DNA of 63,474 nucleotides, the filler included, from Globobulimina sp. (taxonomy: Eukaryota): assembly GCA_003354225.1 (NCBI GenBank). It is 35 parts of 35 records of this genome, joined end to end, with 100 filler letters (N's around TTAATTAATTAA, not from the genome) between each part and the next. Parts side by side here need not be neighbours in the genome. Positions count along the whole stretch, not along the records: positions 34,520 to 36,235 come from PIVH01012770.1; 34 more parts are not named here. The stretch is one strand, 5' to 3'. The translations under genes and the position numbers were made by a program. Below the pieces are notes generated by a model that was given only the letters and a program-made list of their open reading frames with translations, had not been told where the DNA came from and made no database searches. Positions within the stretch are counted from its first letter, which is position 1, and each line of letters opens with the position of its first letter. Below, in pieces: positions 10,908 to 50,178 of the stretch.

Positions 10908-12625
10908 ATTGATAGACTGTCTGTAACCATTTCTATATAATCCAATGTGTCAAGATATTGTCCAGTTATTGTTATATTATATGAATCGACATCAACTGGT
11001 AAATTTGAAGTGGTGTTTGAATAAATAATCGGTGATGGTTTAAATGACAACAATAACGTTTCTGTTTCACCTAATTTAAATCTAGAAATTGTGGAGGTTT
11101 GTATATTGAAATAATAAGCTTCCAAATACACATCTACTGTCGTATTTGCTTGATATAATGCCAAATTAACTGGACATTGTAACAATGAATCATTAATAAT
11201 GGTGGCATTCGATAACCAATCACCAATATTACACATAATATAAAAATCAGTATCATTTAAAATGTTTGTTGACGTGAATGAAGATCCGGAAACATTTAAA
11301 GTGACAGAATAGAATCCGGCATCGATATAAAATCTCGAAGGAGACAATGAACCAATTGCAATTCGCGGAATAATCGCAAAATGTAAATCACCGTAATAAT
11401 CAATACCATTGTTGGAAACTTCCAATTTAATGCATTCATTTATAGATAAATCCAATGTAAATATATCATGGCAAATAATGCTGTTGGTCTGTACAAATGT
11501 TGCTGATACGATATGAGTGCCATTTATCCTGCATTTTAGATCTAAAAACTGTACAAAATTGTCGCCCCAAATTGTTAACTCTTGTTCAGTTGATCCTAAT
11601 ATGCTGTCAAAATAATCAAATAATACTGCAGGATATAATGAATGTACATAAGGTCTGGGCAAATACCAAAATGAAACAAAATTGGACGCTTCATTCCCAT
11701 CATAACCAGCAGTGATTGTTAATGATATATTTGTGGTAATATTCATATTTTCTAAGGCTGGCGATTTGCACACAACGTGAGATACATTGGACATTGTTGG
11801 TGTTGTGGTAATATTATAATAATAATACAGAGTATCAAATATAGCCACACATATTATTGGTTCTGCTGCATTCTCAACTTCAAAAACAATATCTGTGGTA
11901 TAACCTGCTTCTTTTACTTCTAAAAACGTTGGTGAGTATGACTTAATATATGGTATTTCAATGTATGTTAAATCAACTTCATCATTAATATCTGTTGGAT
12001 GTGCATAACCGCTGGAATTCACAATTTGCAGTTGATATACACTTAAATTTGTAAGCGCTGCGGCTGGTGGCACGAAACATGAAATTATTGAATGTGATGT
12101 ATAATTAATAATTGGTGTTGTAATTTGCGTTGGATAAAATAAACATCGATGATCGGTATCGAACCCTGATCCATAAACAGTGATGGTTTCACCCGTTATG
12201 CGACGAATAGTGTTCGGTTCTACGTAACCAATGGTTGGTAATGATGCAAATACGTAGGGAATGTATAAAATGTTACTAACTCGAATATTATCGGATAATT
12301 GGATTGAAAGATAGGTATCTTTGTCATTGGAGATAGGCATATTTGGACATATCCATTGTGTGGGTGATAAATATGTTGCATTATATGTTAATGCCTGATT
12401 ATATATACAATATGCGAATAGATAGCGATACATAAACTGTCCCGTAACAATAATTTTATTAATGACTGAATCAATAGCAATGAATGATGGTTGCAAAGAT
12501 GAAATGGTGATTGGATTCCATAATTCTAATTTAACCGTAGTATTTATCCAAAATTCTCCATCCAATGAAATATGCAAAAATAATGTGGATGGTTCCAAAT
12601 AACCATTAAAATAACAAATCATAGN
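10908..12625 (-). CDS. IPT/TIG-repeat surface protein, internal fragment
   Basis: Repeated P.I..L.P, ITV.G.GF, C.F, I.C..P and LEVSNNG.DY units. Confidence 0.8.
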
Positions 12626-34419: not shown

Positions 34420-34563
34420 NNNNNNNNNNNNNNNNNNNNNNNNNNNNNNNNNNNNNNNNNNNNTTAATTAATTAANNNNNNNNNNNNNNNNNNNNNNNNN
34501 NNNNNNNNNNNNNNNNNNNTGTACTTTTGCTGTGTTCCAGTACATTAAATATGTGTTTTTCAG

Positions 34564-36168
34564 GCGAACGAGCACGGACAGTGTGGCAGGCGATCATTCC
34601 CGGAATGTTTATCTATCATTGTGCGAGCGGCTGGGCCTCGGACCACATCGCCAAAGGAATGTATGGTGCGATCATTGTGGAGCCGTATAATGGATTGCCG
34701 TATTCTGACATGGATGTGTATATAGGCCAAGGCGAGATCTATTTGCATTACCCGTTGGTGAATAATGTGGGTACCAAGTTCAACCGACCTACGCCGAATC
34801 TGCACAATACGTTTGATGACATCAAGGAGCGGTACGAGATGAGCGATGTGGTGATGATGAACGGCGCTCCTTTTGCCTTATTACACAATCCGATCATTAC
34901 TACGGTGGGCAGCATCGTGCGCGCTTTCATTGTGGCAGGTAAATAAAGCAAATATTATACCTATATATATGTAAATTATTATTTTTATTGTAAAAAACAC
35001 AAAAAAAAGGGGGTCCGAATCATCTATCATCCTTTCATTTGATCGGTGATCATTTTGACCGTGTTTGGTTACATGGGGATTTTGCGAGTTCGCCGCAGCA
35101 AAATATACAAACCACCACCGTGCCGCCCGGTGGCTGTGCAGTGGCAGATTGGCGGCATGATACGCCGGGAGCCTTTACATTGGTGGACCACGCCTTGACG
35201 CGTGCCTTTGTCCGAGGAAACTTGGGCATTATACGGGCGTGTTTACCGTCGGATGTTGGCTGTTTGTCGGGTGCAAAGAAGGAAACGTATGCGGGACTGT
35301 ATGGTTGTGACCGCGATCGATATGGTACTAATGAAACGTATTTAGGTGGCGATGATTGCGTATTCTGTCCCTGGAGACGCGACGACTTTGCATACTCCAC
35401 AGTGTATGAGGACACTGATGACATTTACAGTTATTTAGACGCGGCATGTAATATTACTGATCGCGTCACAGTGTGGCAAGGCGCTGAATCGATTCATAAT
35501 GACACTGTATCTGAGCTCCGTAACCAATGGCGAAAAAACCGTTATCCAGGTACTTTTTAAGTATATTTTATGTACAAAATATGTTGTTTTTGCATAAACA
35601 AACAGGCGAAAAACAGTGGACTTTATCCGAGAGATTACGTGTCGCGGATCCTATGCTTGGAAATCAAAGAGGAGGTCCAGGCGGAGAGGATGATGGCGAT
35701 TTTGATGCATCGCCGTGTATCGTTAATGTCGGGGACGTCAGTGTGATATCGATCGAATATTCCATGGAAAAGAGTGGAAAGGGCGAGATTACAATTTCTA
35801 CTTTGTACAATAGTGTGGATGGTGGCGGCTGGATAGGTTTTGGTCGCGGCGGTGATGGCATTTCGACCATGATGGATTCGCATATTCACACTGTACTTTT
35901 TAGTGAGGATTTGAATGAGGTTGAATTTGTAGCACATTTTCTCCGCGATTATGGCACTCCGCAGTTGGATGATTCGGATGAGAAGTTTCCAGTTTCTGGT
36001 GCATCGGTGAGTGTTGCTGATGGTGAGATAAGTTTTACGTTCAATGTGTTGGCGGGGCAGTGGATTGAGCACGGATTTCAAAGCTATGTACCGATGGTGG
36101 TCGCAATCGGTCAACTTAGGGATGGTAATGTTGAGACTGCGGATATGATTAAACATTTTAGTAAATGA
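34564..36168 (+). CDS. nirK: Copper-containing nitrite reductase with C-terminal DOMON-like domain; exons 34564-34938, 35010-35549, 35606-36168; 5' partial
   Basis: PGMFIYHCA..DHIAKGMYG (T2 His; T1 Cys, His, Met); spliced AGGPNHLSSFHLIGDHFDRV (catalytic His); QTTTVPPGG; PGAFTLVDHAL (T2 His). Both phase-1 GT..AG introns splice in frame. Confidence 0.9.
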
Positions 36169-36335
36169 GAGTGTGAATTTGTACAGAATTGGGTAGAAGT
36201 ATCATACCGGATTTTAAAATATAATTATGAAACTGNNNNNNNNNNNNNNNNNNNNNNNNNNNNNNNNNNNNNNNNNNNNTTAATTAATTAANNNNNNNNN
36301 NNNNNNNNNNNNNNNNNNNNNNNNNNNNNNNNNNN

Positions 36336-48808: not shown

Positions 48809-49137
48809 ATAACCGAAATCTGCGCCGTAAAGAAATGTTCTGCGAATAGTTTCGTTCCTTTCGCGTAAGTTACGTTTTAATTCACGGACAGATTTGCTTT
48901 CAAGATATCTGAGTGCGATATCTTAATTGTTTTGTTTTTAAGTATACNNNNNNNNNNNNNNNNNNNNNNNNNNNNNNNNNNNNNNNNNNNNTTAATTAAT
49001 TAANNNNNNNNNNNNNNNNNNNNNNNNNNNNNNNNNNNNNNNNNNNNTATTATCGTACAAATTTAATATATTTAACATGGAAAGAATATCAAATAAAAAT
49101 AAATTTTAATATTCATTCAGTAACAAAAACAAATAAC

Positions 49138-50178
49138 ATGGAGTCATCCAGAAAACATTATTCGTCAAAGATTTTATTGTTTATGACATACTTTGGTGCA
49201 TTTCTCAATGTTTTAACAATATTATTGGGATATTCATATCCGTCAATGTTTCTTGTTTTTGGTGGTGTTTGGTGCATAAATTATATCACTTTAATAACAA
49301 TATTGCTTGTTATAAAAATAAAAAAAGTCAAGGAGATGGTTGGCTGTTTATATGAAGCTTATTTTGTTTTTGCTGCGTTTGTTTTATATTGGTTGGTTGT
49401 ATTATTTGTGGGCGAGGGGCCTTTTTTGTATTTGCAAAGTGTATTAGTTAGCCATTTTTTTGCTTTATTTCCATTATATTATGCAGTGTATTTATTGTAC
49501 CAATTTGAGGGAACATTAACTAAAGAAACCAATGAAAAGGAAATTGGGAACGAGAGTGCTAGCAACATGTTACAACAAGTTCAACTGCAACAAATACAAA
49601 CAGAAACACCTCAAAAATCAGTAAAATTAAAAGATTATTTATCAGTGCAGGCTCAATATGATATATTTGCTCAATATTTGGCATTATGTTTCTGTTTAGA
49701 AAATTTGTTATTTGTTGAACGAGTCTGTATATTTCGATGGATTGTAATTAGAATGAAATTGAGAAATGAAAACGATGCAATTGTAAATAACTTAAGTACG
49801 GATATTGCAAATATTAATAACGAAATAAAATCAGCATATTCATTGAAGTTTGAGTTTTTAGAAAATATTTATAAAGAATATAGTGATGTTATTGGCGATG
49901 ATGTTGTGGGTAATTTTGAACATTATAGAGATTTATTATGGTGTATTGGTCACAATATTTATAAAGAATTTATTGATGAATTTAGTGTGAATCAAATTAA
50001 TGTTCCATATGCTTTACGAATAAATTTAACAAATGCGTTGAAGAGCAATGAGAATATTACAAAATTTGAGTCCTATGATGAGTTTTTGACCATTTTTGAT
50101 GATTCGATACTTAATATATGGAGATTGTTGTGTGGTATTTATCGATTTCGATTTGCATCTTATTTAAAACAACAGTAA
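49138..50178 (+). CDS. TM-RGS protein (regulator of G-protein signalling), probably 5' partial
   Basis: TM helices followed by an RGS box: F..YL...FCLENLLF, IYKEFI...QINV...R. Confidence 0.8.
   Translation: MESSRKHYSSKILLFMTYFGAFLNVLTILLGYSYPSMFLVFGGVWCINYITLITILLVIKIKKVKEMVGCLYEAYFVFAAFVLYWLVVLFVGEGPFLYLQSVLVSHFFALFPLYYAVYLLYQFEGTLTKETNEKEIGNESASNMLQQVQLQQIQTETPQKSVKLKDYLSVQAQYDIFAQYLALCFCLENLLFVERVCIFRWIVIRMKLRNENDAIVNNLSTDIANINNEIKSAYSLKFEFLENIYKEYSDVIGDDVVGNFEHYRDLLWCIGHNIYKEFIDEFSVNQINVPYALRINLTNALKSNENITKFESYDEFLTIFDDSILNIWRLLCGIYRFRFASYLKQQ

Follow-up and report, generated by a model that had tools for sequence, protein, structure and literature searches.

The question raised by this locus is whether the copper nitrite reductase (NirK) of a foraminifer carries its own electron donor as a fused domain. 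The window analysed here is a stretch of 63,474 bases of Globobulimina sp. DNA, and an earlier note, made from its letters, had proposed that one of its contigs encodes a NirK joined to a putatively haem-binding, DOMON-like carboxy-terminal domain. This contig (34520–36235) carries the 3'-terminal two thirds of a foraminiferal-type nirK gene that is nuclear and contains introns. Its spliced product has three parts: a NirK core, a cysteine-rich linker of about 140 amino acids and a carboxy-terminal DOMON-superfamily beta-sandwich of about 170 amino acids. The fusion of NirK with this domain is conserved in several foraminiferal lineages. We put the probability of haem b binding by the domain, with a role as electron donor to NirK, at roughly 0.55. 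Among eukaryotes, foraminifera are the chief denitrifiers of oxygen-poor sediments, and the conserved domain is a concrete, testable candidate for the donor of their NirK.

Gene structure and splicing

When segments 34564–34938, 35010–35549 and 35606–36168 are joined, they form one open frame of 492 codons that runs to a TGA at 36166–36168. All features lie on the plus strand. The contig begins within an intron and the gene lacks its 5' part; the 3' end of this upstream intron (34520–34563, GC content 0.318) closes with an acceptor AG at 34562–34563. Exon 1 (34564–34938) encodes the end of cupredoxin domain I and the start of domain II, and is followed by intron 1 (34939–35009, 71 nt). The first part of exon 2 (35010–35239) completes the NirK core, and its second part (35240–35549) encodes about 103 amino acids of the linker. 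After intron 2 (35550–35605, 56 nt), exon 3 (35606–36165) contributes the end of the linker (its residues 1–35) and the DOMON-fold domain (from about residue 36 onwards, 35713–36165). Both introns are of phase 1 and of the GT..AG type, open with CAG/GTA and close with AG; their GC contents are 0.141 and 0.214, compared to 0.455–0.504 for the exons. Intron 2 holds an in-frame TAA (35558–35560) of the unspliced reading.

Splicing was analysed in four of the five public runs that match the stretch, here called X1 to X4. The runs are Logan contigs whose library kind is unrecorded, and contigs lacking an intron beside an intron-bearing one were read as transcript. By this reading X1, X3 and X4 are transcript assemblies and X2 is genomic DNA; X2, X3 and X4 come from one sample, X1 from another study with another organism label. 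As the runs are stored as contigs, depth and strand mean little. In each of X3, X4 and X1, one contig skips exactly the 71 nt of intron 1 and one skips exactly the 56 nt of intron 2. All the joints of these contigs are at GT..AG, and their shorter side extends up to 255 letters. Removing the two phase 1 introns to obtain one frame, as the earlier note had done on paper, is therefore what these contigs show, and the junction that it had singled out for checking, 35549 to 35606, is joined exactly at GT..AG by contigs of three runs and two studies. The X2 contigs retain the introns, with spans 34575–34960, 34971–35188 and 35366–35940, the last with 0 differences to the window. Transcripts ending at the TAA at 35560, which the earlier note had named as an outcome that would refute its proposal, were not seen among the X1 to X4 contigs.

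Homologous proteins cross the same sites. When P0011 (814 amino acids) and P0001 (509 amino acids) were compared to the window with tblastn, matches were found on the nirK contig only. Residues 300–425, 424–610 and 600–793 of P0011, and residues 1–112, 111–303 and 306–490 of P0001, align collinearly over both introns, and the uninterrupted open reading frames of P0001, P0011 and P0013 (793 amino acids) run across both junction sites. There are 80 differences between runs and window in total; 40 of these are listed, 35 of them at third codon positions, including all 15 of those listed for exon 1. The motifs quoted in the earlier note were all found: FIYHCASGWASDHIAKGM, SSFHLIG, VDHALT, GGWIGFGRGGDGISTMMDSHIH, DYGTPQLD, DGEISFTF, MVVAIG and ADMIKH. 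The sequence observation from which this work started is thus real, and now has transcript-level support.

Ends of the gene

Upstream, the spliced X3, X4 and X1 contigs part from the window contig at 34561 and carry coding letters, which read by eye ..GGAASLRINPG before ERART and resemble P0011 (GGAAALRVAPGERART). The upstream nirK exons, which would encode the amino-terminal half with the first type 1 copper (T1Cu) and type 2 copper (T2Cu) histidines, were not found in the window.

Downstream, the TGA at 36168, taken in the earlier note for the end of the frame, has not stood as the true end, as spliced contigs continue in frame beyond 36165. The match to the window ends at 36165 in the contigs of X2, X3 and X4 and at 36160 in the X1 contig, and all of them run on for another 66–225 coding-like letters. 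The in-frame continuation reads by eye DILYLDLTAT in X3 and X4 and resembles ..HFDKDILFFHPAGAQCLFGG of P0001 and ..HSDKDVLYVNLEATECLLGG of P0011; the downstream continuation of the open reading frame was not found in the window. The apparent stop lies in the contig tail (36166–36235). These last 70 nt of the contig are uncovered in all four runs, with depth 0 in the bin 36202–36235. The tail starts with TG, not GT, and an X2 contig that is identical to the window across 36043–36165 reads straight through. The homologues have about 25 further residues after the carboxy-terminal histidine, including a conserved cysteine. From the continuing spliced contigs and the homologue tails it follows that the real product is about 25 residues longer and includes this cysteine, and the coding sequence probably extends past the TGA at 36166–36168. 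The tail may be an unusual intron, an allele or an assembly join. A third intron of the canonical kind at 36161 (A/GTAAAT) was considered and rejected, as it needs a coincidence of five letters and the X2 contig reads straight on. Separately, X2 contains a second variant of the continuation past 36165, indicating at least two copies or alleles.

NirK core and linker

The NCBIfam model TIGR02376 matches exon 1 over model positions 112–222 (E 2.9e-16, 59.7 bits) and exon 2, collinearly with the exon 1 match, over positions 235–310 (E 7.9e-22, 78 bits); these scores are for exon fragments, and the whole-protein cut-off of 296.3 bits is out of reach for a partial gene. In a Pfam scan of full-length P0011, Cu-oxidase_3 and Cu-oxidase_2 both score above their cut-offs. 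Exon 1 contains the T2Cu histidine and T1Cu cysteine pair (HC, 34617–34622), the T1Cu histidine (34644–34646) and the T1Cu methionine (34659–34661); exon 2 contains the catalytic histidine of SSFHLIG (35036–35038) and the T2Cu histidine of VDHALT (35189–35191). These residues are assigned to the copper and catalytic sites by the motifs of NirK. The copper-ligand signature of NirK, composed of HC..H....M, SSFHLIG and VDHALT, is present in the window. The amino-terminal His-x-x-Asp-x-His motif is located off the contig and reads HSVDFH in P0011 and HSIDFH in L001, a relative described below. Identity to P0011 is 77% for exon 1, 57% for exon 2 and 42% for exon 3, and that of exon 1 to P0001 is 83%. 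The TIGR02376 matches, the copper motifs and the splicing contigs all support the earlier assignment to a eukaryotic, intron-bearing, foraminifer-type NirK.

The linker (about 140 amino acids, 35240–35712) is located between the NirK core and the carboxy-terminal domain. Its six cysteines (exon 2 residues 77, 84, 99, 116, 119 and 146, including those of a DDCxFCPW motif) are shared by the window, P0001 and P0011. It gave no Pfam match and no usable ESM Atlas match, and its structural model is of low confidence. Among the differences listed for the linker, 15 of 18 are at third codon positions, a bias which argues that it is coding and under constraint. The linker is a conserved module of no known family or fold.

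Relatives and conservation of the fusion

An exhaustive phmmer search of exon 3 against 1,835,955,588 representative proteins gave five matches at E<=0.001, with three real relative clusters, all NirK-linked or foraminiferal. P0001 (E 4e-41) starts within NirK (MFIYHCASGW..) and extends across linker and domain. The cluster of P0002 (E 4e-38) has nine members, among them P0011 and P0013, and P0003 (E 1e-33) is named by its source as coming from Nonionella stella, a foraminifer. The remaining two, P0004 (E 5e-08) and P0005 (E 1.9e-06), are internally repetitive proteins matched in five and four short stretches, respectively; they were judged spurious and kept out of the alignments. Proteins from three sources (Logan, JGI/IMG and ENA) read unbroken from NirK into the carboxy-terminal domain and, together with the splice-skipping contigs, place the domain in the same protein as NirK, as had been proposed. 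Searches with the domain alignment gave 224 pattern matches in a metagenome contig collection and 73 in one-per-species prokaryote genomes, none of them confirmed in either set. Word-indexed protein searches with exon 3 and with residues 520–814 of P0011 gave no scores, missed P0011 itself and are uninformative.

In the same sample there is a second DOMON-bearing paralogue, perhaps of the other NirK clade. Contigs of X2, X3 and X4 match the window only over a 45-nt stretch (35820–35864, GGWIGFGRGGDGIS) and diverge on both sides of it; the flanks, read by eye as ..TLRSKVS.. before and ..VMTDSHVQTV after, are still family-like.

A scan of metagenome contigs with P0011 gave four loci (L001 to L004). 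L001 (2195–3645, plus strand), on an AT-rich contig, contains 5' exons of a foraminifer-like nirK, with a best segment that is 76% identical to P0011. At the position of the window's upstream intron it is uninterrupted, so intron positions differ between nirK copies. L003 is a 100-residue match outside any open reading frame of at least 150 amino acids, and L004 is an amino-terminal match of low similarity. L002 is bacterial and is compared to the foraminiferal protein below.

Fold of the carboxy-terminal domain

An AlphaFold2 model of the exon 3 product, built with four homologue rows, is a ten-strand beta-sandwich with a mean pLDDT of 63, a pTM of 0.67 and a core of pLDDT 70–87; values are below 50 for residues 1–36. 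The best non-antibody matches found with Foldseek are the gamma subunit of ethylbenzene dehydrogenase (2ivf_C, E 7.8e-05) and the cytochrome domains of cellobiose dehydrogenase (CDH; 4qi3, 4qi7 and 4qi6), followed by the cytochrome b domain of pyranose dehydrogenase (6jt6), the DOMON domain of human dopamine beta-hydroxylase (DBH; 4zel) and a CBM9 domain (1i82). The E-values for the superfamily range from 7.8e-05 to 2e-03, with many antibody domains interleaved.

A structure scan of 48,161 representative chains, independent of Foldseek, found eight chains with a Z-score of 8 or higher, all of the DOMON superfamily, with root-mean-square deviations of 2.8–4.0 over 129–155 aligned residues. These are 4zel_B (Z 11.0), 7b04_C (chain C of nitrite oxidoreductase, 10.6), 2ivf_C (10.6), 6jt6_A (9.7), 1d7c_A (9.4), 4qi6_A (8.9), 1i82_A (8.7) and 4qi3_B (8.6); the next chain is an antibody (7.8). 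In the ESM Atlas, 26 of 30 feature matches belong to the DOMON set, with a top score of 0.94, and the neighbours carry PF03351 and PF04526. The lack of any DOMON fold match, which had been named as the outcome that would speak against the domain, was thus not observed. As judged from the model, the domain is a divergent DOMON-superfamily member, an assignment that is sound at the superfamily level.

Candidate haem ligands and proposed electron transfer

The candidate haem ligands are Met88 (35869–35871) and His183 (36154–36156) of the exon 3 product. Met88 directly follows the GWI[G/S]FGRGG strand, in GIS[A/T]M, and is invariant, like His92 (35881–35883), in all five aligned rows; as P0010 and P0011 fall into the same 90% cluster, these rows stand for four distinct lineages. 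The DM-x-x-His183 motif is kept in every row that reaches the site (the window, P0001 and P0010/P0011). Read by eye, the loose ends of the paralogue contain GISVMTDSH and X1 contains GISAM. The conserved pattern is a methionine after GWIxFGRGGxGIS and a histidine about 95 residues further on; the Met and carboxy-terminal His pattern recognised in the earlier note is thus conserved in the alignment rows that cover it. In HYP1, a CYBDOM protein, haem b has been assigned to M90 and H174, of which H174 is placed like H176 of CDH (4QI3), and the 95-residue spacing between Met88 and His183 is near that of the HYP1 pair (excerpts of PMC10784544). By extrapolating the range of the superposition on 1pl3/1d7c (model residues 25..186 to chain residues 1..172), Met88 is placed near chain residue 64, adjacent to Met65; the title of entry 1pl3 names an M65H mutant.

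If the domain is a haem protein, the Met/His pair would bind one haem b, as in the CDH cytochrome domains and CYBDOM proteins. The domain would receive electrons one at a time from a donor in the membrane and hand them to the type 1 copper, with the tethered cytochrome swinging on its linker between the two. It would then fill the role that a fused cytochrome c or cupredoxin has in bacterial three-domain NirKs.

Several results weigh against a haem-binding DOMON domain. The Pfam model PF03351 (DOMON) matches residues 69–147 on profile positions 25–98 with E 0.0098 and 16.5 bits, below its cut-off of 32.7, and did not match any of the three homologues P0011, P0001 and P0003 at E<=1. By Pfam threshold the domain is not a member of PF03351; of the earlier DOMON claim the fold class was borne out by Foldseek, the chain scan and the ESM Atlas, and the Pfam check suggested in the note fell short. 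Sequence searches of the PDB gave only chance matches with the single sequence (E 0.65 or worse) and none at E<=10 with the family profile. The ESM Atlas recognition value of 1970 is under the mark of 2300 and counts as weak evidence. Antibody folds trail by a modest margin only (Z 7.8–8.3 versus 11). The pLDDT of the model, 63 overall, is 56 around Met88 and below 50 over residues 177–186, which include His183, and a model of the linker, domain and tail of P0010 has a mean pLDDT of 49.9, too low for it to be of use. By the same range extrapolation, His183 falls some 6–7 residues off the histidine of CDH, where the model is least reliable. Only about four independent sequences stand behind the conservation of the Met and His. 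The best single fold match is the DOMON domain of DBH, free of haem ligands, and CBM9 sugar binders match too. The DBH DOMON has been described as having no possible haem ligands and no pocket (excerpts of PMC4846438); since it is nevertheless the top match, the fold alone is not decisive, and the argument for haem b rests on the retained Met and His.

The most serious alternative, less probable than haem binding and on balance unlikely, is a DOMON-fold module without haem that would bind a ligand or carbohydrate, serve as an anchor, mediate oligomerisation or regulate the enzyme, as has been proposed for the DBH DOMON or for CBM9, beside a NirK that uses a separate donor. The match to the DBH DOMON (rmsd 2.8 over 129 aligned residues) and the Z-score of the CBM9 chains, 8.7, fit this explanation, as do the sub-threshold Pfam match and the poor model around the histidine. 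The DBH DOMON, too, sits on a copper enzyme; it is without haem ligands, and its role may be a regulatory one (PMC4846438, in the parts consulted). A long cysteine-rich linker with N-x-S/T sites is like those of extracellular adhesive or structural modules. Five of the eight top chains, on the other hand, are haem-b proteins, among them 7b04_C, 2ivf_C and, by their entry titles, the cytochrome domains of CDH and PDH (pyranose dehydrogenase), and relatives of the enzyme carry redox partners at the same position. The DBH pocket contains no Met, His, Lys or Cys (same excerpts), whereas the NirK-linked family keeps the canonical Met and the carboxy-terminal His. Should the domain prove to be haem-free, it would still be a new architecture of a well-studied enzyme, of much less mechanistic interest.

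It is improbable that the conserved Met and His residues (M88, H92, M180 and H183; STMMDSHIH in the window) bind copper instead, with the domain loading or buffering copper for NirK. NirK needs two copper atoms per subunit, the Met and His residues are clustered and conserved, and the beta-sandwich copper-resistance protein CrdA occurs far down the fold list (9ll2_A, Z 6.2). This last match scores far lower than the DOMON ones, at the level of the antibody-fold background. Within the local cluster, invariance is limited to M88 and H92, while the second Met and second His of the window motif are not conserved, and no copper-binding DOMON domain is known to us. That exon 3 lies outside the nirK product, as a separate downstream frame (an ATG-initiated one, from about 35527, overlaps the end of exon 2 in the exon 3 frame) or as a chimera in a highly fragmented assembly with 70 unsupported terminal nt, is hardly credible given the exact 35549 to 35606 joints in three runs of two studies, the continuous Logan, JGI/IMG and ENA proteins and the unspliced X2 contig that covers 35366–35940 with 0 differences.

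The preferred reading remains that of a probable haem-b electron-donor module on NirK, for which the literature searched gives no precedent in this enzyme. If haem b is bound, the domain would be a third type of naturally tethered partner beside cytochrome c and cupredoxin, fusions that serve as models of electron-transfer complexes.

Membrane anchor and possible cell location

The amino-terminus of P0011 consists of an acidic stretch of about 58 residues, unlike a mitochondrial presequence, followed by a hydrophobic segment at about residues 62–86 (Kyte-Doolittle 2.49 over 19 residues) flanked by Lys before and Asp/Glu after. After this anchor come a spacer of about 130 amino acids, the NirK core with all copper motifs, the linker with its six cysteines and the domain, which contains one cysteine near its start and one in the carboxy-terminal tail. 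The former (Cys37, 35716–35718) is kept in the window, P0001 and P0011. The full-length relatives thus add an amino-terminal cytoplasmic tail and one membrane-anchor helix, which would place the whole enzyme on the non-cytoplasmic side of a membrane. The family has eight conserved cysteines and several N-x-S/T sites, one of which, in the core, is common to P0011 (NAT) and L001 (NGT). DOMON domains are reportedly extracytoplasmic as a rule. The positive-inside anchor, the eight cysteines, the N-x-S/T sites and this habit of DOMON domains together indicate an oxidising, non-cytoplasmic compartment.

Woehle et al. hypothesised a NirK of the mitochondrial intermembrane space by analogy with fungi (PMC6783311, in part). 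The anchor may be one of the inner membrane, facing the intermembrane space; a place in the secretory or vacuolar system or at the cell surface is a realistic alternative. The anchor, the cysteines and the N-x-S/T sites amount to a testable topology prediction that sits uneasily with the intermembrane-space hypothesis. A more specific version, in which NirK is a type II membrane-anchored, disulfide-rich, probably glycosylated protein that faces the nitrate-storing lumen of the secretory or vacuolar system, or the surface, and has its haem-b DOMON charged through the membrane by a b561-type or similar transmembrane reductase, is speculative, and we consider it doubtful. If true, nitrite reduction would not be a soluble intermembrane-space reaction fed by mitochondrial bc1 and cytochrome c; tethered NirKs would gain a new class, and one step of eukaryotic denitrification would take place outside the mitochondrion.

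Comparison with described systems

Foraminiferal NirK has been described from Globobulimina, Nonionella, Bolivina and other rotaliids, as a nuclear-encoded protein of the same family with conserved copper ligands; canonical introns number two or three per gene (Woehle et al. 2018, PMC6783311; Woehle et al. 2022, PMC9231491; Gomaa et al. 2021, PMC8153729). In the available portions of these papers, only the cupredoxin domains and copper sites are described, and no carboxy-terminal domain, linker or anchor. The term DOMON is absent from the main texts of all three, the supplementary alignments, which fall outside this scope, being places where the extension may be shown unannotated. The terms C-terminal and extension are absent from the main texts of PMC6783311 and PMC9231491, and fusion from that of PMC9231491; PMC10999283 does not contain DOMON, C-terminal, extension or fused. 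Full-text searching of the published literature gave no NirK-DOMON fusion among the titles listed, in agreement with the earlier note, whose author knew of none.

In two-domain NirKs, the type 1 copper receives one electron from a small cupredoxin or cytochrome c, and some 30% of nirK denitrifiers are said to have a terminally fused partner, tethered NirKs carrying either cytochrome c or cupredoxin (excerpts of PMC13324648). The three-domain enzymes RpNiR and PhNiR, with a carboxy-terminal cytochrome c, and HdNiR and TsNiR, with a cupredoxin, resemble the foraminiferal protein in having a redox-partner-like terminal fusion (same source). The foraminiferal module is neither of these: it is a DOMON beta-sandwich that lacks a CxxCH motif and whose haem, if it has one, would be of type b, its linker is about 140 amino acids long and rich in cysteine, and its host is a eukaryote. 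The bacterial relative L002 (1517–3139, plus strand), on a high-GC metagenome contig, is a NirK of 540 amino acids with an amino-terminal hydrophobic helix and a plastocyanin/azurin-type cupredoxin at its carboxy-terminus (PF00127, E 7.3e-13). Over 249 residues its core shares 43% identity with P0011, and the similarity stops where the foraminiferal linker starts. L002 and the foraminiferal NirK share the order of anchor, core and carboxy-terminal module, with different modules; as a single example this does not establish ancestry.

The cytochrome domains of CDH (1D7C, 1PL3, 4QI3, 4QI6 and 4QI7) and the cytochrome b domain of pyranose dehydrogenase (6JT6) are mobile haem-b DOMON domains, tethered by a linker to a redox enzyme and with Met and carboxy-terminal His ligands. 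They match the model with Z-scores of 8.6–9.7 over 135–152 residues, at 12–17% identity and with no match at the sequence level, and the equivalence of the ligands is by range extrapolation only. The CDH cytochrome domain reduces the copper enzyme LPMO. In CDH, the DOMON domain is amino-terminal and receives electrons from the flavin domain of the same protein, while in the foraminiferal NirK it is carboxy-terminal. CYBDOM/AIR12 proteins such as HYP1 contain an extracytoplasmic DOMON domain with haem b predicted to be bound via M90/H174 (PMC10784544, in part). In contrast to CYBDOM proteins, the foraminiferal protein has no fused cytochrome b561 and its partner is NirK; a b561-type donor is speculation. 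DBH (4ZEL), the best fold match, likewise has a DOMON domain fused to a copper enzyme, in this case of the secretory pathway, and differs from the NirK-linked family in the ligand and pocket residues discussed above.

Other contigs of the window

The window is made up of 35 short contigs of 1715–1718 nt each, sorted by length and joined via N44-TTAATTAATTAA-N44 linkers. Adjacency is therefore without genomic meaning and the nirK gene has no true neighbours here. The nirK contig has a GC content of 0.448, the highest of the 35 pieces (others about 0.28–0.44). Of ten long open frames on other contigs (such as 10910–12622, minus strand, and 49048–50175, plus strand), eight gave no Pfam match at E<=0.001; one matches IPT/TIG (E 1.9e-10) and one has a sub-threshold RGS match. 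On the nirK contig itself, a stop-to-stop frame of 188 codons runs antisense to exon 3 (35635–36201, minus strand). It is taken to be a shadow of the coding strand, because the homologues and the third-position variation favour the plus frame.

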